NCBI GenBank assembly: GCA_040880545.1 | Contig: JBBDIE010000151.1 | Span: 10,617-74,616, forward strand | Source of the DNA: Bacteroidales bacterium | GTDB lineage: Bacteria; Bacteroidota; Bacteroidia; Bacteroidales; GCA-2748055 | Direction of reading: 5' to 3' | DNA length: 64,000 bases | Shown here: piece after piece, positions 7,659 to 57,048 of the stretch | Numbering within the stretch: the stretch's first letter is position 1 | Layout: every line of letters begins with the position of its first letter | Made by a program: the position numbers and the translations under genes | Notes under the pieces: model-generated | Databases searched by the model: none | Told to the model about the DNA's origin: nothing | Seen by the model: only the letters and a program-made list of their open reading frames with translations

Positions 7659-10600
7659 TTAAAATGTAAAGTTAGCTCCGACTGCTGCCATTTTGGGGAT
7701 GGGTTTTCCTAATGCTCCCCTGTATTCAGGATCATATCGTCCCTGACGGAAATATTCCCCGAAAGCAAAATAGTTTTTTAGGGTCACGTAAAGCCGAAGG
7801 GATTTAATATAGGCGTTCTGTGTAAAATCCGTTGGTAAAGTATAACCCAGTGTGACATCCCTGATTTTGATATAGGAACCATCTTTATAGGTCAGGACAG
7901 TTGCTTCGGACCATCCACTTCGTGTGAGGCCCGGATTCAGTCTAGGATAAGTATTGATAGGATTATTCGGTGTCCAGTAATCTCTTTCCATGGAGTTCTC
8001 GCGACGGTCGGGAGCCCATTGGAGTTCGATATTGTCCCTAACCATATGGCCTATTCTGGCGTAAATAAATACTGTCAGGTCAAACCCCTTATATCGCATG
8101 GTGGAGTTGATCCCTGCAGTCCATTTAGGCCTGGGAGATCCCAGAATTAACCGGTCCTGATCATTAATGATGGTGTCATTGTTTACATCTCTTTGTTTCA
8201 GATCTCCGGGCTGCCGTCCATAAAGAGAAGCATCTTCTTCCTCGTCAAGCTGCCAGATTCCGGTTTTGTCGAAATCATAAAACACACCCACGGGATGTCC
8301 TACAAACCAGCCATTACCAATATCCTGTTCCACCCCTCCTACCAGAAAAGTGATTTCCTCGGTATTGGCAGCAAAGGTAATATCGGTAGACCAGTTGAAA
8401 TTATTTGTTCTTATGTTAACGGTCCGCAGGGTAACTTCCACTCCTTGGTTTTTTGTTTTACCAATATTCTGAGTGATTTCGGGAACAGCAGAAGTCGGTG
8501 GTAGGGTCCGGTTTTGTAACAGGTCCTCCGTATGGGTCTTGTAGAGCTCTATTGTACCGCTGATCCGGTTTCTGAAAAGACCGAAGTCAATCCCCAGGTT
8601 TTGTGCGGTGGTAGTCTCCCAGGTAAGATCGGGATTATCCAAAAAACCGGTGCGATAACCAAGGTGGGGATTCGTCCCGAACTCATAGTAAAGTGGAGTG
8701 CGGATAATTGAACCCAGCGCAGCATAGGGGTCAACCGACTGATTACCGGTTTTACCGTAACCGAATCTAAGTTTCAGGTTGGAGATCGCATCCAGGTTGT
8801 CCATGAAGCTTTCTTCACTAAGACGCCAGGCAATAGAAGCAGAGGGGAAAAAGGCCCATTTTTCTGCCAGCTGACTGGCCCCGTCGTAACGTCCTGTAAG
8901 GGTTACCAGATACTTACCCTGGAATCCATAGTGCATCCTTCCGATAAAGGAGGCTAACTGGTTCTCGATTAACTGCAGGAAGCTTTCATCACCAGGAGGA
9001 GCAATTAGTATGTCTTGCTGACCAGAAGTGAGCGACCACCACCAGGAATTTCCAAGCAGAAGGTCGGTAGCTCCCTGGTAAGAACTTTCGGTTTTGGATG
9101 CAACCGTTTCCGTTGCCCCTGTAAGAATCAGGTGGTGATCCCCAAAATATTTATCATAGGTCAATATATTTTGAAATGTCCATTTATAGTCTGAAGTCAT
9201 GGTGATATTCGCCTCGCTAAGCCTGTCGATTCCAACATATTCGCCCTGAAAATAGCCATCTCTGTTAAAGCCCAGGTTTACATTTATTGAGGAGCGAAAG
9301 CTGAATCCTTCAAAAAGATCCAGTTGAGCGTACAAGGTGGAGAAAAGATCAGTCTGGATTATTTCGTTAAGGTAATTATCAGGGTCCTGGTCAATCAGTG
9401 GATTCTCAAAAGGCGCACGGTCATCTGGTTCAGGGACCAGGTTTCCGGTTGAGTCATACGCCGGTGTAAGGGGATTCATGTTATAGTTGATCCCATTTCC
9501 ATCAATACGGTTCGAATTGGCCAGAAAGGTGGAGTTTCCCAGGCTCAACCAGTCATTTACCTGAGAATTTAAGTTGACCTTTAAAGAGTAGCGCTTGTAA
9601 TGATCATTTGGAATAAAATTATCCTCCACCATATGGTTCATTGAAACTGCATATTTAAGAATTTTATCTCCTCCGGAAACGGAGAGGTGGTAATCCTGCT
9701 GGGTTCCGAAATCCTCCATTTGAGCATCAACCCAGTCGAAATCATTTCCTGCATCATAGCCCTCATTCTCCCTTGCTGATAACCCTGGTCCAACGTCAAT
9801 CTCATCGTCAGGGGTGTCCCAATCATAATTCGGCCTTGTAGTACGAAGGAAATCACGGGTCATCCTAAGAAAATAATCTGCATCACCCAGTGGAACGCTC
9901 CCGAGCGGGGTGGTGATACCATAGTAGGTATTGAAGGATATGACCTGCTTTCCCGCCTCTCCTTTTTTGGTGGTGATCAATATTACTCCGTTGGCACCGC
10001 GTGATCCGTAAATGGCTGTTGAAGAAGCATCCTTAAGCACCTCCATGGATGCGATATCGTTGGGATTGATATTGACATTGCTTCCATAATCAATGCCGTC
10101 TACGATATAAATTGGTTCATTTGATGCAGTCAGAGAACGGGCACCCCTCAGGAGTATATCATAACCGGAACCTGCCTCTCCGCTACTTCGGACCATGTCA
10201 AGTCCTGCCACCTTACCCTGAAGGGCTTCGATCACATTGGTTGATCTGGTGGTGGCGATATCCTCTTCCCGGATGGAAGAGACAGCTCCCGTCAGGTCAC
10301 TTCGCTTCATGGTGCCATATCCGACTACCACGACCTCGTCAAGGGTTTCGACACTTGGGTTAAGTGCTAAATTAATCTTCGTCTGGTCAGTCACTTCCCG
10401 GTAGACCTCTAAATAGCCGATGTAGGAGAAGTGGAGCGTATCTCCTGCAGAGGCCATGATTGAATAGTTGCCATCTGCATTTGTAATTGTACCCGTTGTT
10501 GTTCCGGTCACAGTGACATTGACGCCGGTAAGAGGTTCATTTGTCTCTGCATCCTTCACCATACCGGTAATCTCCCGGTCCTGGGCACTTGCCGGCCGGA

Positions 10601-50379: not shown

Positions 50380-53300
50380 ATGAACTTTAATTACACTACC
50401 AAAATTGCATCCCGTAGAATAAAAGGAAACAGAATTATCAGTTCCGTACTTATGCAGATTCTGATTCTTGTGTTATTTACCGGTTCCATTTTCGCCCAAA
50501 ATACCAAAAAAGGGGTGGAAAAAGACATCAACATTATTCTTGAATGTGTTAGTTACATCGGAAATGGCAACTATTTGGCTAAATTCGGATATGACAATCC
50601 CAATAACTTTGAGGTCATTGTAGCTGATACCAGTAGTCTGGTTGTCTACAACGAAGGTGAATTCATTGAAAAGGGAGTGAATTTCTTTGAACCAGGTCGC
50701 CATGAAAATGTATTTTCAAAACAGTTTACAGGCAAACAGAAAATAAGGTGGCACATGATCCTCCCCAACGGGAAGGAAGTAGAGGTTACGGCCAATGCCA
50801 ATTCAAACCTCTGTTCAGGTTCCGGTGGAAATGGTGACATTCTCCCCTATTATCAGCCACCTGAAAACGGAAAGGATTATTCGCTCATTGGGCCGGAACT
50901 TACATCTTTGGCCGAAGTATATGAATATTCAGGGTTTGCTGAATCAAATCATATTTACCAGACCGACGGCACCAATGTGTTGATTGAATTTGTTGCACTT
51001 GAAGGACAGTATGATGCTGTACTGCAATTGTTGACAAATGATTATGGCTTCCAGCTTTCACATGGTGATCCGGATAACCTGAAAATCACAGGGTTAATAC
51101 CTATCGAAAACCTGATACTGCTCAACGACCTGGTGGAATACGGGTCATTTGCACGTCCGTTATATCCTCCTGTTTCAAATAACAGCGGGCTGGCCCTCAA
51201 CAATGGTGATTATTCCATGCGGACCAACCTCGTAAGGGAAGGCTTTAGTCTTTCTGGAGCTGGCGTAAAGGTAGGTGTGATATCCGACAGTTATAATACT
51301 CAGGGCGGAGCGGCCGCCGATGTAGTAAACGGCGACCTTCCCGGGGAAGGTAACATTGATGGGAACACCATACCCGTTGAAGTATTAAAGGATTACAGCC
51401 TTCCGTTTGGAACGCTGATGGATGAGGGAAGGGGAATGCTGCAAATAGTACATGATATTGCCCCAGGCGCATCTCTTGCTTTCAGAACAGGGTATCTCAG
51501 CCCGGGTGACTTTGCCGACGGAATTCAACAACTTGCTGACGCCGGCTCCGACATCATCGTAGATGACCTGAGCTATATTACTGAACCATTCTTTAAGGAT
51601 GGTGTTGTTGCACAAGCTGTTGATGCAGTTGTGGACCAGGGTGTCGCCTATTTTTCAGCAGCCGGTAACTTCGGTAAAAAATCTTATGCATCTTATTTTA
51701 CTGCAGCGAAAGGAAAGCTTCCCAAGAATGTAACGGGTGACATTCACAACTTTGGAAATGGTGACCTGTACCAGAATATCAGCCTGAAAAAGGGAGACTA
51801 TATTGTGGTGCTTCAGTGGGAAGAAGCCGGGTCCGTCCAAAATGACCTGGACATCTTTCTCTCCGATGAAAACGGCAGTACGCTGTTTGGATTCAACCGG
51901 AATAACATCGGTGGTGAGGCAGTTGAAATATTACCCTTTACAGTAACCAGCGATTCTGCCAATACCAACTTCCTGATAGCCAGGGCCAGTGGTTCTGATA
52001 ATGTCAGGTTTAAATATATTGTATACAGGGGGCAGATCAGCATCAATGAATATGAAACCGGCACCTCCACGATTGTTGGACAGGCTAACGCAGCAGGCGC
52101 CATCACTGTGGGAGCAGTAAAATACGACAACACACCCGCTTTTGGCGTTGAAGTGCCTACCATTGCTTCATTTTCTTCCATTGGAGGAACACCGGTTAAC
52201 GGAGTGGTCAGGCCAAAACCTGAAATCACAGCGCCGAACGGTGTGAATACTACTGTTAAACTGAGCCCGTTTGATCTGGACGGAGACGGAAACTTCGAGT
52301 TTTACGGTACTTCAGCAGCAGCACCACATGCAGCTGCAATGGCCGCGCTGATCATTGAAGGTTACGGGAAATATGAAAATACACATCCGACACCACTACA
52401 GATCAAGCAATTGATGTGCTCCACCGCCATTGATATGGATGAACCCGGATTTGACCACATCTCAGGTCATGGTTTCATCCAGGCCGACAAAGCACTGGCA
52501 ACTTTTGCAAATCCGGCTCCATCACTATCGGATCTGACCATTCCCGCTGACATTGTTCCCGGTGAAAATGCATTTACCGTTACGGCAACGGGAAGTTCCC
52601 TGAGCAGTACCACGGTACTTCTCATGAGAGGCGAAGAGATCCCAACTACCTTTGTCAGCGATTCAGAGTTAACCGCGGTGGTTCCAACCTTTATCGGGAA
52701 TCCAACAATTCAGGCATATACCCCTCCAATTTCCAGTTCTGCCTTCGACGGTGGTACCTCCGATCCACTCTATTTCTTTGGAGAGGCCAAAAGGAGACTT
52801 ACCATTGTTGCCAATGATACGGTTAAAAAATTCGGTGAAAAACTTCCGGACTTTACCTTTAACGTTTTGATTGACAGCATGCCTGCATCTCCCGATGATT
52901 TTTCAGATCAGGAGTATGAAAGGATTACCTCAGTGGCATTCCTGAGCGGGGCCAGTCAGACAAGCAATGTGGGGCAATATATCATCAGGCCTCTGTTCGA
53001 TCCGTCGATTGGTTCATCCTCCGATGAGTCAGAACCTTACTATGAGGCCGATATAGCGCTTAGTGAACGTTTTAATATGGAATTTGGAGACGGTACACTG
53101 ACCATCGAAAGGTTATCTCTGAAAATATCGCCTGCCGAATTACAGAAAAGTTACGGATCCACCATCAGCGCCGAAGATATAACATACAACTATCAAATCC
53201 TTGATGACTCCCTGGCTATGTCAGAAGCTGAAATGAGTGCGCTTCTTCAGGAAATAAACAGCAGTCATACAGAAGGACTTGCCAATGGAGTGGCCATTGT

Positions 53301-54885
53301 GAACGGTGTTGCCATCGTAAATGGTGTTGCCATGGTAAACGGTGTACCCTTGTTGAACGGTGTACCCATCCTAAACGGTGTTGCTATTGTGAATAGTGCG
53401 GGCGAAATTCAATTCATCGACCTGGAAGATGTGAACATGCTGACCAGCCTGAACGCTCTTCAAAATGGTGTGCCCCTCTTAAATGGAGTGCCTATATTAA
53501 ATGGTGTACCCCTGGTTAATGGCGTTGAAGGAAATATTTCCGGCGAATCACTGTCGATCGCTGTAAACAATATGGACGAAGACGGTACTGTATACGATGA
53601 GAATGGGAACGTTATAGAAAACGGAGTGCCCATACTGAATGGCGTGGCCATCGTAAACGGAGTCGCTATTGTTAATGGTGTGCCCCTGGTTAATGGTGTG
53701 CCTCTGGTAAATGGTGTACCCATTCTGAACGGTGTACCATTACTTAACGGCGTACCTCTGTTGAATGGAGTACCCCTTGTTAACAGTAACAATATCAACG
53801 AAGACAGCAATGCTGAAACTGTGATGGTATATGACAGCCTGGATTTCGTTTACGAGGAGGGCCAGGATCTACCAGAATTCCAATCGATTGCAATGATAAC
53901 AGGAACAACCACAGGAACACACTGGATCGTCCCGGGTACATTTATCTCTTCCAACTATAATATCTCTTATTCACCAGCACAACTGCTCATCGAAAAAGCA
54001 CCGTTGTACGTTGACATCGATGATCAGGTAATCCTTGAAGGAGATGCGGTTCCCGAAAACTTCAGTTATACTGTTTCAGGCTTTGCAGCATCCGAATCAT
54101 TTGACATGGACACTGTCCTGACTTTCACAGTGGATCCTGAATATACAGGGATGCCGGGTTTATACAGTATTACTGCAACAGGTGAACTTGCAAATTATTA
54201 CCTTGAAGTGAACCCTGGAACACTGTATGTAAATCCGAACAGCAACAGTACCAAATCCATCAAGACGTTCCTGGTTTGTATTGAAGAGGTAAACGATCCC
54301 GAAACCGGATTCCGGTACCTGGCTCACTTTGAATATGAGAACAAAAATGCTGATGCCATCTTTATTCCTGTAGGAGAGAATAACCTGCTGATCGGAAATG
54401 ACGGTGCCTTTGTGGCCATCGACCAGCCTGAGTTGTTTGCCCCCGGTATCGGCTCATTCGATGTTTTGTTTGACGGAACAAAGCTTATCTGGGAGGTTAC
54501 CAGCATGGAAAAATCGATGAAATCATCTGTAGCATCCAATGCCAGTGCAGAATCTGCCCGCTGTTCTTCCAGTAAAAAGTCGTTGGGCAATGGATCGGGA
54601 AGTAACAGTGCAGGTACAGAGAATAATACCGATATCAGTGAACTGGTACATGGATTACTTTATCCGAACCCTGCCAGGGACCGAGTGACCCTGCAACTGA
54701 ATGTTCAACCACTGGACGATGAAATATTGATTATCGACATGCGTGGACAGGTGCTCGATATTGTAAGCAATAATTCAGGTACAGGCGTCATTGAATTCGA
54801 TGTATCCGGACTGAAACCTGGGTTGTACTTAATTAAGGTTGACTTTGAAGATTCATTTGAAATTTTCCAGCTGATGAAGCAATAA
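50380..54885 (+). CDS. Giant T9SS-secreted subtilisin-family (S8) peptidase with MBG-like domains, hexapeptide-repeat arrays and duplicated Cys-bracketed terminal modules
   Basis: It has a signal peptide (VLMQILILVLFTGSIFAQ). S8 motifs are VGVISDS (Asp), MLQIVHDIAPGA (His region), SAAGNFG (Asn) and GTSAAAPHAAAMAALI (Ser). MBG-like segments include LTIVANDTVKKFGEKLPDFTF.. and LIEKAPLYVDIDD..GLYSITATGELANYYLEVNPGTLYVNP. The T9SS CTD is LLYPNPARDRVTLQL..PGLYLIKVDF. Confidence 0.85.
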   Translation: MNFNYTTKIASRRIKGNRIISSVLMQILILVLFTGSIFAQNTKKGVEKDINIILECVSYIGNGNYLAKFGYDNPNNFEVIVADTSSLVVYNEGEFIEKGVNFFEPGRHENVFSKQFTGKQKIRWHMILPNGKEVEVTANANSNLCSGSGGNGDILPYYQPPENGKDYSLIGPELTSLAEVYEYSGFAESNHIYQTDGTNVLIEFVALEGQYDAVLQLLTNDYGFQLSHGDPDNLKITGLIPIENLILLNDLVEYGSFARPLYPPVSNNSGLALNNGDYSMRTNLVREGFSLSGAGVKVGVISDSYNTQGGAAADVVNGDLPGEGNIDGNTIPVEVLKDYSLPFGTLMDEGRGMLQIVHDIAPGASLAFRTGYLSPGDFADGIQQLADAGSDIIVDDLSYITEPFFKDGVVAQAVDAVVDQGVAYFSAAGNFGKKSYASYFTAAKGKLPKNVTGDIHNFGNGDLYQNISLKKGDYIVVLQWEEAGSVQNDLDIFLSDENGSTLFGFNRNNIGGEAVEILPFTVTSDSANTNFLIARASGSDNVRFKYIVYRGQISINEYETGTSTIVGQANAAGAITVGAVKYDNTPAFGVEVPTIASFSSIGGTPVNGVVRPKPEITAPNGVNTTVKLSPFDLDGDGNFEFYGTSAAAPHAAAMAALIIEGYGKYENTHPTPLQIKQLMCSTAIDMDEPGFDHISGHGFIQADKALATFANPAPSLSDLTIPADIVPGENAFTVTATGSSLSSTTVLLMRGEEIPTTFVSDSELTAVVPTFIGNPTIQAYTPPISSSAFDGGTSDPLYFFGEAKRRLTIVANDTVKKFGEKLPDFTFNVLIDSMPASPDDFSDQEYERITSVAFLSGASQTSNVGQYIIRPLFDPSIGSSSDESEPYYEADIALSERFNMEFGDGTLTIERLSLKISPAELQKSYGSTISAEDITYNYQILDDSLAMSEAEMSALLQEINSSHTEGLANGVAIVNGVAIVNGVAMVNGVPLLNGVPILNGVAIVNSAGEIQFIDLEDVNMLTSLNALQNGVPLLNGVPILNGVPLVNGVEGNISGESLSIAVNNMDEDGTVYDENGNVIENGVPILNGVAIVNGVAIVNGVPLVNGVPLVNGVPILNGVPLLNGVPLLNGVPLVNSNNINEDSNAETVMVYDSLDFVYEEGQDLPEFQSIAMITGTTTGTHWIVPGTFISSNYNISYSPAQLLIEKAPLYVDIDDQVILEGDAVPENFSYTVSGFAASESFDMDTVLTFTVDPEYTGMPGLYSITATGELANYYLEVNPGTLYVNPNSNSTKSIKTFLVCIEEVNDPETGFRYLAHFEYENKNADAIFIPVGENNLLIGNDGAFVAIDQPELFAPGIGSFDVLFDGTKLIWEVTSMEKSMKSSVASNASAESARCSSSKKSLGNGSGSNSAGTENNTDISELVHGLLYPNPARDRVTLQLNVQPLDDEILIIDMRGQVLDIVSNNSGTGVIEFDVSGLKPGLYLIKVDFEDSFEIFQLMKQ
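53284..53781 (+). repeat. Coding 18-nt (hexapeptide) repeat arrays, N-G-V-[PA]-[ILM]-[VL], 18 units in three blocks
   Basis: Block 1 spans 53284-53391 (6 units). Block 2 spans 53464-53517 (3 units plus a partial). Block 3 spans 53620-53781 (9 units). All units are in the CDS frame, and codons differ between units. Confidence 0.95.
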
Positions 54886-54963: not shown

Positions 54964-57048
54964 ATGAGTAAAAAGGCATTCTTCATTATTTTTTCGCTTT
55001 TACTGCTCTGCACCTCTGTAATTGGTCAGGATACTAAAATCAGCGAACTGAAATCATCTGTCGAAATCATGGCGGATGACACAATCAAAGTGAATACGCT
55101 GCTGGAACTTAGTAAATCATTGTATGAGACCTCACAACAGGAAGCAATAGCATACAGTCTGCAGGCCAGGGAACTTGCGAGGCGCCTGGAATTTAAATAT
55201 GGAGAGGCAACCGCCTTGAAATACCAGGGACTGGCAAATTTTTACCTGGGTGAATATGTTGAATCATACAGGGCATGGGAAGAGGCGCTGAACATATTTG
55301 AAAATATCGGTGACAAAGAGGGAGAAGCAAACATACTCAGCAACATCGGGGTTATCTATAACAACCAGGGTGACGACTCCAGGGCGCTTGAACTATACCT
55401 GAAAGCATTGGACCTGGCTAATGAGACCAATGATACGCTTCGTGAAATCAGCGTATTAAACAACATTGGACTGATCTATTCCAAAAAACCATCCACAGAA
55501 CAACTGGCCCTGGAAAATTACCAAACTGCCCTTGAACTTAGTGAACTGTTTAATTTTCCACGGGGTATCGGCTCCACCTCCCTGAACATTGGTGAGATCT
55601 TCTTTAACAACGGCGATTACTCCTCGGCACTGGAATATTTCGAACGATCCATGTCGGCATTTAAACAGACCAATTCGTTGGATATCACAAGCACGTACAT
55701 TTACATTGGTAAAATTTATGCGGCCAGGGAAGATTATGACATGGCCGTCCAGTACCAGGAAGAATCCCTGGAAATAGCGACCAATGCTGGTGCAAAAAGA
55801 GAGGTATTGCTCTCTGTCCTTGCCCTTGCCCAGACTTACTATGCCAAAGGAGATATGAACAACGCCATTGAGCTCAATATCAGGGCCAGGAAACTTGCGG
55901 ATGAACTGGGTGCCAGGTATGAGAAAATGAGTGCACTACGTGCGCTTGCGGTTGCCTACGAATCGGGAAACGACTTCAGAAATGCCTTCCTGGCACAGGT
56001 ACAGGCGTGGAATTTAAAGGATACCATATTCTCCGAAGCAAGTCAGGAACAGATCAATAAGCTCAGGGTACAGAATGAAATTGATAATTATCAGCAGGAA
56101 AACGAATTGCTCAAACGTGATATTGAACTCAGGGAAGTAAGAAATAAGCAGCAGCAGATCGTCATCCTGGTTTTTATCATTGGTTTCATCGTAACCATGG
56201 TATTTATTATCCTTCTGTTCAGAACCAACAAATTAAGACGAAGAGCCAACCATATCCTGGAAAAACAAAACATCCTGATTACAGGGCAGAAGAAGGAAAT
56301 TACTGACAGTATCCGTTATGCCAGCCGAATTCAGAATGCGGTATTAACACCGGTTGAGGACCTGTCGCAATTTCTGCCGGAGCACTTTATCCTTTACAGG
56401 CCACGAGATATTGTCAGCGGCGATTTTTACTGGATTACAAAGATCAATAACAGGATCATGTGTGTGATTGCAGATTGCACGGGACATGGAGTGCCAGGAG
56501 CATTTATGAGCATGCTGGGGGTCACCTTCCTTAACGAAATAATCAGCCGGAACCCGGATATCCAGGCAAATGATATGCTGAACGAATTAAGGAGCCATGT
56601 AATCACATCCCTTCATCAAACTGCCGGACAGGGTGGAACACAGGATGGGATGGACCTGGCGACAATTATTATCGACCAGCCCAATTCTGAATTACAGTAT
56701 GCCGGAGCCAACAATCCGTTGATCCTTATCAGAAATAATGAACTGAAAGAATACAAGCCCGACAAAATGCCCATCGGAATTCACGAAAATGCGAATAAGC
56801 CATTTACAAATCACAAAATCAAATATAGTGCAGGAGATGTTTTGTATACCTTTTCCGATGGTTTCCCCGATCAGTTTGGGGGACCATCCGGTAAAAAATT
56901 CATGATCAGGAATTTCAAGGAGCAGCTTTCAAGAATTCATAAAAAACCAATGGGTCAGCAACTAATCATGCTGGAAAAGGTATTGGATGACTGGATGGAA
57001 GGGGTAAGCCAGATCGATGATATTCTTGTCATGGGAATACGACTGTAA
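54964..57048 (+). CDS. Membrane-anchored TPR-sensor / PP2C (SpoIIE/RsbU-type) serine phosphatase
   Basis: After a signal peptide come multiple TPR units (EAIAYSLQARELARRL, EANILSNIGVIYNNQGD, ALELYLKAL..). One TM helix follows (IVILVFIIGFIVTMVFIILLF). The PP2C/SpoIIE motifs are RYASRIQNAVL, VSGDFYW, IADCTGHGVPGAFMS, DGMDLA and FSDGFPDQFGG. Confidence 0.85.
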   Translation: MSKKAFFIIFSLLLLCTSVIGQDTKISELKSSVEIMADDTIKVNTLLELSKSLYETSQQEAIAYSLQARELARRLEFKYGEATALKYQGLANFYLGEYVESYRAWEEALNIFENIGDKEGEANILSNIGVIYNNQGDDSRALELYLKALDLANETNDTLREISVLNNIGLIYSKKPSTEQLALENYQTALELSELFNFPRGIGSTSLNIGEIFFNNGDYSSALEYFERSMSAFKQTNSLDITSTYIYIGKIYAAREDYDMAVQYQEESLEIATNAGAKREVLLSVLALAQTYYAKGDMNNAIELNIRARKLADELGARYEKMSALRALAVAYESGNDFRNAFLAQVQAWNLKDTIFSEASQEQINKLRVQNEIDNYQQENELLKRDIELREVRNKQQQIVILVFIIGFIVTMVFIILLFRTNKLRRRANHILEKQNILITGQKKEITDSIRYASRIQNAVLTPVEDLSQFLPEHFILYRPRDIVSGDFYWITKINNRIMCVIADCTGHGVPGAFMSMLGVTFLNEIISRNPDIQANDMLNELRSHVITSLHQTAGQGGTQDGMDLATIIIDQPNSELQYAGANNPLILIRNNELKEYKPDKMPIGIHENANKPFTNHKIKYSAGDVLYTFSDGFPDQFGGPSGKKFMIRNFKEQLSRIHKKPMGQQLIMLEKVLDDWMEGVSQIDDILVMGIRL

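Follow-up and report, generated by a model that had tools for sequence, protein, structure and literature searches.

A peptide-selected hexapeptide repeat in a predicted type IX-secreted S8 protease of Bacteroidota

Why should a surface protease carry eighteen nearly identical hexapeptides, what keeps them so regular, and what might they fold into? These questions are raised by an S8 peptidase gene with a type IX secretion system (T9SS) sorting domain, in a 64,000-nucleotide stretch of Bacteroidales DNA (contig JBBDIE010000151.1; the whole stretch is called the window below), whose product contains three arrays of the unit N-G-V-[PA]-[ILM]-[VL]. We found that the arrays are under purifying selection on the peptide. 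Judged from sequence, a repeat of the form N-G-x-[A/S/P]-[L/I]-[V/I] is the hallmark of a large Bacteroidota family of S8 proteases with MBG domains and a T9SS sorting domain, in which it occupies one MBG loop, and the arrays of the window are an unusually regular local form of it. A preliminary description had interpreted them as a left-handed beta-helix (LbH) with three units per turn; this three-units-per-turn reading is not supported, and we tentatively propose a stacked beta module.

Sequence constraint within the arrays and across the family

A regular-expression scan of the 1501-residue open reading frame (ORF) for NGV[PA][ILM][VL] returned runs of six, three and nine perfect units, the second run being followed by a degenerate fourth unit, NGVEGN, which ends at nucleotide 53535. 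The blocks lie exactly where the preliminary description had placed them, and the example stretch quoted there is correct to the letter; that eighteen perfect units arose by chance can be excluded. Proline occupies position 4 in 12 of the 18 units. Their DNA is heterogeneous, the 18-nucleotide periods matching at just 75-87% in Tandem Repeats Finder. Asn is encoded by AAT in ten units and AAC in eight, and Gly by GGT (11), GGA (5) or GGC (2); Val uses GTG, GTA, GTT and GTC, and Pro uses CCC, CCT and CCA, so that every codon family listed earlier is indeed in use. All 18 units are distinct as DNA, with a mean pairwise nucleotide identity of 70%, and units that encode the same peptide differ at 2.7-5.2 of their 18 nucleotides. 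An antisense ORF of 116 amino acids (53460-53810, minus strand) has a six-residue period of its own (GTPF/GTPL...); it mirrors the arrays on the opposite strand and is almost certainly not a gene.

The same pattern was observed in related proteins. In most lineages the same peptides are encoded by almost all-different DNA, with 3-4.8 differences per 18 nucleotides. The proposal that selection on the peptide, and not recent slippage, maintains the periodicity therefore holds for the window and also for about 46 related lineages, in which identical peptides are again almost always written in different DNA. When 1065 units of the family were tallied by imposing only Asn at a spacing of six, position 2 was Gly in 84%, position 4 was Ala, Ser, Pro or Thr in 85% (A 27, S 25, P 24, T 9), position 5 was Leu, Ile or Val in 87% (L 67, I 13) and position 6 was Val or Ile in 82% (V 70, I 12). 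Position 3 behaves differently, its entropy being 1.38 bits within a protein versus 3.12 bits when pooled over the family. Positions 5 and 6 also take a common state in single proteins: II in L001, LV in L002 and L027, and a mixture in the window protein. The last block follows a conserved linker, DGTV.D.NGNV, and its order of Pro and Ala at position 4 (Thr once) is PAAPPPPP in L002 and L027, PAPTPPPP in L001 and PAAPPPPPP in the window. Since this order is retained, the units keep positional orthology, and positions 3, 5 and 6 take lineage-wide states.

More than 1000 Bacteroidota homologues of the S8/MBG/T9SS type were detected at 37-44% identity to the window protein. Chitinophaga and Solitalea are among the lineages that carry a family member. 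Among the 120 homologues listed, 103 contain at least five [AP]-h-h-N motifs (h, hydrophobic), and 81 align through the host-domain segment (query residues 900-1285), most of them with 7-17 hydrophobic-hydrophobic-Asn motifs there. These motifs align inside the split MBG domain described below, and the helix that opens the insert is likewise conserved. The arrays take the forms RGxALV-NGxPxx, ARPLVN, GKALVN and perfect NGxxLV; one homologue (P0063) has perfect NGxxLV arrays of 6, 11 and 10 units. A search of 185,579 species genomes for DNA encoding four strict NGV[PA]hh units found only three loci, and viral contigs had none. One of the three, L002, is a 60%-identical orthologue in a Chitinophaga metagenome-assembled genome (MAG) with blocks of 7, 3 and 8 units, 18 in total; another, L001, is a relative in a Bacteroidales MAG and has NGVPII units. 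A looser pattern of four N-G-x-[PAST]-h-h units matched at least 120 metagenome loci, and 69 of the 120 loci listed encode homologues of the S8/MBG/T9SS family, representing at least 46 distinct lineages. Each lineage has its own unit: NGRAIV, NGLSLV, NGISLV, NGGALV, NGYALV/NGYPLV, NGIPLV/NGIALV, NGRTLI, NGRALV, NGQTLV, NGFAMV or NGHALV. Orthologues with 8-19 uniform units occur, the NGYALV lineage L024 being an example. A protein search with the array region alone gave 8000 candidates and none at E≤1e-3, for which composition correction is probably responsible, and the exact window protein is absent from a collection of 15 billion sequences. The preliminary description knew of no account of an NGVP-type hexapeptide solenoid on an extracellular protease, and we found no dedicated description of the repeat in Pfam, NCBIfam or the literature searched.

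In L010, L027, L080 and other loci the number of units rises to 30-35, spread over as many as nine blocks. Between these blocks lie segments of about 20 residues and alternating polarity, for example NGIEVKVEGGITYINNEPIENG, which resemble longer beta hairpins standing in for about three units.

Three further kinds of array were encountered outside the family. A second, unrelated protease family has 4-6 units of NGHAII, NGHTII or NGTAII arrayed near its C-terminus (L004, L006, L011, L012, L035, L047, L048, L051, L059, L066, L083 and L096). Its complete ORFs span 623-696 amino acids, and both members scanned, L004 and L051, match Trypsin_2, L051 alone above the cut-off. That two protease families have similar arrays may be due to chance, or it may indicate a role linked to proteases. 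At the edge of the stretch fetched for L003, an Anaerolineae MAG (7826-7896, minus strand), a 67-residue frame reads DGVPSP, NGVPFP four times and NGVPFL four times; it has no similarity to the protease family and may be an unrelated 18-bp tandem repeat. L056 and L081 have NGVTVV/NGETVV arrays in a protein that is rich in Lys and Glu, with many Cys and His in its C-terminal part; this protein has no Pfam match and is unrelated to the protease family.

The host domain and the protein around it

The features of the protein are as follows, all on the plus strand.

50380-54885, +: coding sequence of the 1501-residue S8 peptidase/MBG/T9SS cargo protein, stop codon included (ORF list, Pfam, homologues)
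50380-50496, +: probable signal peptide, residues 1-39, ending ...LFTGSIFA before Q (from reading the sequence)
50509-50829, +: N-terminal domain, residues ~44-150, outside any Pfam family and paralogous to residues 1289-1400 (BLASTP)
51964-52473, +: C-terminal part of the S8 catalytic domain, residues 529-698, containing GTSAAAPH (Pfam Peptidase_S8)
52798-52989, +: first MBG_2-like domain, residues 807-870 (MBG_2, E 3.4e-5, 24.8 bits)
53131-53265, +: N-terminal half of the split second MBG_2 domain, residues 918-962 (spliced-construct match; pLDDT 75-86)
53224-53277, +: conserved helix opening the insert, residues 949-966, MSEAEMSALLQEINSSHT (AlphaFold2 helix; homologue alignment)
53284-53391, +: array 1, residues 969-1004, six units, NGVAIV NGVAIV NGVAMV NGVPLL NGVPIL NGVAIV (regular-expression scan)
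53392-53463, +: linker 1, NSAGEIQFIDLEDVNMLTSLNALQ, with a D-L-E-[DN]-x-x-[FML] motif kept across the family (alignments)
53464-53517, +: array 2, residues 1029-1046, three units, NGVPLL NGVPIL NGVPLV (regular-expression scan)
53518-53619, +: linker 2, beginning with the degenerate NGVEGN and containing a conserved ...ES.L..A.N....DGTVYDENGNVIE (kept in L001, L002 and L027)
53620-53781, +: array 3, residues 1081-1134, nine units with the Pro/Ala order P-A-A-P-P-P-P-P-P, common to orthologues
53860-53985, +: C-terminal half of the split second MBG_2 domain, residues 1161-1202 (spliced-construct match; pLDDT 68-86)
54007-54225, +: third MBG_2 domain, residues 1210-1282, the best MBG_2 stretch (38 bits alone; pLDDT 80-97)
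54244-54579, +: C-proximal domain, residues 1289-1400, paralogue of the N-terminal domain (BLASTP; kept in family members)
54658-54882, +: T9SS type A C-terminal sorting domain, residues 1427-1501 (PF18962, TIGR04183)

A Pfam scan of the window protein gave 60.5 bits for Peptidase_S8 against a cut-off of 21.8, which places it in the S8 family. On inspection of the translation, the catalytic motifs were assigned as VISDSY (Asp), IVHDIAP (His) and AAGNFG (Asn) at about residues 300-430, with GTSAAAPH (Ser) downstream. The C-terminus matches Por_Secre_tail (PF18962) at 42.6 bits against a cut-off of 27 and TIGR04183 at 37.5 against 23, as expected of T9SS type A; by this sorting-domain match the protein is a T9SS cargo and is predicted to be secreted. 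These matches, together with the ORF list, bear out the earlier identification of a 1501-residue S8 T9SS cargo protein. A choice-of-anchor-Z repeat was found at residues 712-770 in the NCBIfam scan, and MBG_2 matched in three stretches, for 54.3 bits over the whole protein. The two terminal domains (residues ~44-150 and 1289-1400) are 28% identical (E 2e-5, BLASTP between segments); neither matches a Pfam family, and both are conserved across the protease family.

When residues 963-1160 were removed and the flanks joined, the spliced construct matched MBG_2 profile positions 5-71 of 72 (E 2.5e-4; 22.0 bits, below the 25-bit cut-off). Because the joined flanks cover the profile in this way, the arrays are read as interrupting the second MBG domain within a loop. 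Both flanks are confident in the AlphaFold2 model, and with the homologue alignment these observations support one loop of a putative MBG_2-type domain as the host of the arrays, in agreement with the earlier suggestion that they interrupt an MBG-like domain.

The flanking genes are all housekeeping (YebC, a LiaF-like protein, a TPR-SpoIIE phosphatase, a MiaB-like enzyme, AspRS, Ogt and AroA), and no partner gene was seen among the neighbours of the protease gene. The product of the next gene downstream (54964-57048, plus strand) is rich in TPRs, has a phosphatase domain of the SpoIIE type and shows no evident link to the protease.

Candidate folds for the arrays

Searching 1.84 billion representatives with an array profile (A3) retrieved 371 proteins at E≤1e-3, with family members on top. 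A set of 122 smaller profile matches included 50 B_solenoid_ydck, 27 Bactofilin, 19 Hexapep and 17 LbH_EIF2B proteins, and these carry [YSF]-G-[ND]-A-x-V units. The arrays align in register with YdcK-type repeats at 95.6% probability (hhalign, A2 against A5), a score which, like other hhalign and HMM scores between periodic low-complexity profiles, is uncalibrated; we therefore take the arrays to share a skeleton, not homology, with YdcK-type repeats. Both have Gly in the second place of the unit, a small residue in the fourth and Val in the sixth, and some beta-solenoid-like stack is therefore plausible. This Gly/small/aliphatic skeleton, found both by hhalign and by the profile search, is the part of the original solenoid idea that survives; three units per turn is the part that does not.

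The original proposal was a canonical LbH, in which three hexapeptides make an 18-residue turn and the blocks make 2, 1 and 3 turns, perhaps in one prism with the linkers looped out at its corners. The strict period of six speaks for it, as do the residues of the YdcK-type LbH skeleton (V at i, G at i+2, A at i+4), the presence of Hexapep and LbH_EIF2B proteins among the profile neighbours, and a total of 18 units in both the window and the orthologue L002 (7+3+8). However, when the arrays were scanned alone, Hexapep, B_solenoid_ydck, Bactofilin and LbH_EIF2B gave no match even at E≤10, and the same Pfam library detected solenoid models in control proteins retrieved by the array profile. The hexapeptide rule of such helices is [LIV]-[GAED]-x2-[STAV]-x. 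The preliminary description had seen a loose fit in the register V-N-G-V-A-I; that fit fails, as V-N-G-V-[AP]-[IL] has Asn at i+1 and Pro at i+4 in 12 of 18 units. The register [IL]-[VL]-N-G-V-[AP] has Val or Leu at i+1. Pro-type units break the rule in every register and Ala-type units break it at i+1 (Asn), and the conserved aliphatic residue at the outward i+5 would be atypical.

The rule of three fares no better. Block sizes had been taken as multiples of three, one set per turn; across lineages they range from 2 to 19, and among 172 blocks 42% are divisible by three versus about 33% expected. The total per protein is divisible by three in 37% of lineages, so that unit numbers are not kept in threes among homologues, and the orthologous last block has 8 units in L001, L002 and L027 versus 9 in the window. 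A different period emerges from the closest homologues, which alternate two unit types, RGxALV and NGxPxx: the identity of their turn residues is 78% at lag 2 and 78% at lag 4, against 35-37% at lags 1 and 3. Blocks made only of NG units show enrichment at lag 1 and no signal at lag 3 (lag-3 z -2.0), and a three-unit periodicity looked for in heterogeneous blocks was absent.

Among 15 three-block lineages, the first two blocks together are about as long as the last one (r=0.79), to within one unit in 11 of the 15; in the window the figures are 6+3 and 9. This relation, which would suggest two limbs of equal length, is lost once two-block lineages are included (rho 0.16 over all lineages with at most three blocks), and the lineages are not independent; we regard it as no more than a hint.

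Two AlphaFold2 models were computed, the first for residues 900-1285 with a 19-sequence alignment and the second for residues 960-1165 without an alignment. In the first, the predicted local distance difference test score (pLDDT) is 68-97 in the MBG parts, whose confident portions are beta strands of immunoglobulin-like (Ig-like) domains, and 75-86 in the helix that opens the insert (segment residues 50-67); it is only 21-47 over residues 970-1149. In the second, it averages 34.8 and is below 50 throughout, and DSSP reads EEEE-- at a period of six in this low-confidence model. A low-confidence prediction for the arrays had been named beforehand as telling against the helix, as had arbitrary unit numbers in homologues, and both were seen. 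AlphaFold2 builds no helix here, although in our judgement it should model such helices well; a failed prediction is nevertheless not proof that a left-handed parallel beta-helix is absent. Taking the sequence rule, the block counts, the periodicity and the models together, we regard the canonical LbH as improbable.

The low pLDDT is open to two other readings. One is that the arrays have no fixed structure and serve as a flexible spacer or as short linear motifs (docking, pseudo-substrate or processing sites) tied to the function of the protease. Scores below 50 in both predictions are consistent with this, as are the free variation of copy number among lineages and the arrays of NGHAII or NGTAII, 4-6 units long, in the unrelated Trypsin_2-like family (671-690 amino acids). 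The sequence itself speaks otherwise. Five of the six positions are constrained, and the order of units is kept between orthologues. The 197-residue insert is rich in aliphatic residues (V 36, N 32, G 25, L 23, I 15, P 12), a composition unlike that of a disordered linker, in which so much V, L and I would be atypical. Asn-Gly is typical of tight turns and of Asn ladders, and it deamidates quickly in a flexible chain. With 18-35 exposed pairs, such a chain would be expected to deamidate within days, and a rigid turn is therefore more likely. Asn or Val at P1 is also not a typical cleavage preference of subtilases. We consider disorder distinctly unlikely.

The other reading is that the monomer is loose or unfolded and that beta structure forms only on assembly, either between chains (a trimeric beta-helix, cross-beta or a polymer) or on the surface of a partner, with clustering of the proteases at the cell surface as the outcome. 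It would explain the failure of monomer prediction in both runs. An x-[AP]-L-V strand would be largely apolar on both faces, the nearest outside neighbours of the array profile are the polymer-forming bactofilins (27 of 122) and LbH families, and LbH enzymes are typically trimers; in-register stacking would also favour the homogeneity of units within a protein. Yet no sign of oligomerisation was seen, and the insert both enters and leaves through a single loop of a monomeric Ig-like domain. Lineages such as NGRAIV and NGRALV, in which every unit has Arg at position 3, would stack charges, and unfolded hydrophobic arrays beside an active protease should be unstable. Assembly-dependent structure is thus, in our view, unlikely.

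The explanation that we favour, with less than even confidence, is that the units form a stacked beta module, either a narrow solenoid or a stack of hairpins, acting as an arm or binding face of variable length. A folded module is preferred over a linker because five of six positions are constrained in an aliphatic-rich sequence, and because an invariant Asn adjoins Gly and the order of units is retained with lineage-wide states. Each unit would contribute a four-residue beta strand closed by a tight turn at Asn-Gly, and the units would stack into a regular beta structure with a core of small and aliphatic residues. The stack may be a narrow solenoid on the Gly/small/Val skeleton of YdcK and LbH proteins, or it may consist of hairpins in which each structural repeat takes up two units. 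Position 3 would face outwards, forming a lineage-specific stripe, of Val in the window and of Arg, Tyr, Leu, Gly or Gln elsewhere. The location in a stalk domain between protease and anchor, and the free variation in length and at position 3, suggest that the module is a rigid arm or a face for binding. Lying between the catalytic domain and the C-terminal domain that anchors the protein to the surface, such a module of adjustable length might keep the protease in contact with a polymeric substrate or with a surface nearby.

Several observations weigh against the stacked beta module. AlphaFold2 gives no confident fold for the arrays in either model, and Foldseek returned only Ig-like adhesin domains and no helix for the first of them and no match at all for the other. 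The beta-solenoid models of Pfam do not match the arrays, and sequence and profile searches found no solved structure or PDB chain that resembles them. Proline at position 4, present in two-thirds of the window's units, would cost a backbone hydrogen bond in a regular sheet, and the conserved aliphatic position 5 would be exposed in the YdcK/LbH register. The neighbouring housekeeping genes offer nothing that bears on function.

A bolder version of the stacked module is that the arrays represent a new beta architecture outside the LbH class, either a 12-residue roll or a hairpin stack, on which structure predictors fail and in which the position-3 stripe, reset in each lineage, tunes adhesion. 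The T9SS proteases would then carry a naturally programmable adhesive arm, and a similar device may have arisen independently in the trypsin-like family. We hold this version to be rather unlikely as a whole.

Whatever the fold, the repeat is conserved and strongly selected in more than 1000 detectable proteases of soil, water and sludge Bacteroidota, and has no dedicated annotation. If it is a stacked beta module, it would constitute a new sequence class of hexapeptide solenoids housed inside an Ig-like domain. With units uniform inside each protein and different from lineage to lineage, it would also offer a clean natural system for studying repeat homogeneity without DNA homogenisation, and one for studying how surface proteases are positioned on their substrates. 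A disordered repeat would amount to a linker of unusual hydrophobicity, rich in Asn-Gly, that itself needs explanation.

Comparison with known systems

Apart from Pam3_gp18, LED_rpt (PF20854) is the sole curated model that scores on the arrays. It gives 39.8 bits for the whole window protein and 46.9 for the arrays alone, below the cut-off of 59, with the window arrays matching profile positions 7-69 of 176; the relative L027, with NGIPLV units, reaches 66 bits and exceeds the cut-off. The resemblance is partial, in that at most positions 3-70 of the 176 are matched and NGRAIV and NGYALV arrays do not match. A literature search for LED_rpt and PF20854 found nothing on its identity or role.

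Pam3_gp18 (PF22479), the baseplate plug of a phage, scores 29.8-41.5 bits against a cut-off of 24.2. The match is confined to positions 44-81 of 101 and is made repeatedly by the repeat units, so the full domain is not covered; PHROGs returns only the same virion-protein family. The plug has been solved as an Ig-like monomer of a two-layer beta-sheet plus a helix (PMC9942802). We rejected it as a structural template, since the match is partial and repeated, no PDB match was found and viral contigs gave no match to the strict four-unit DNA pattern, and we regard the similarity as compositional.

Among structures with short repeats, the head of YadA is a tight two-strand beta-roll of 14-residue NSVAIG repeats. 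The arrays recall it in their Asn-small-Val-Ala-Ile-type motif, and the 12-residue, two-unit super-period of the close homologues would suit two strands per coil. They differ from it in having a period of 12 and not 14, in not belonging to a trimeric autotransporter, and in showing no YadA-type match in Pfam or the PDB.

YdcK-type and other hexapeptide solenoids (PF18836, PF00132, LbH_EIF2B, Bactofilin) are the nearest outside neighbours of the array profile, and share with the arrays the strict six-residue period and three of the six positions, namely Gly2, the small fourth residue and Val6. The remaining positions differ: position 1 is Tyr, Ser or Phe in the YdcK type and invariant Asn in the arrays, position 3 is Asn or Asp in the former and variable in the latter, and position 5 is variable in the former and a conserved Leu or Ile in the latter. 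The arrays also have frequent Pro at position 4, lack a three-unit periodicity and a predicted helix, are matched by none of the models, and form short, interrupted blocks in the loop of an Ig-like domain.

The likeness of the surrounding protein is to the MBG_2 (PF18676) stalks of bacterial adhesins and T9SS cargo, as the host domain and its two neighbours are all MBG_2-like, and the parts modelled confidently by AlphaFold2 match Ig-like and MucBP-like domains of adhesin and S-layer proteins (InlK, Sap and GhpA) in Foldseek. What sets the host domain apart is that the canonical MBG_2 profile has 72 positions, whereas here one loop of the domain carries a repeat insert of about 200 residues.

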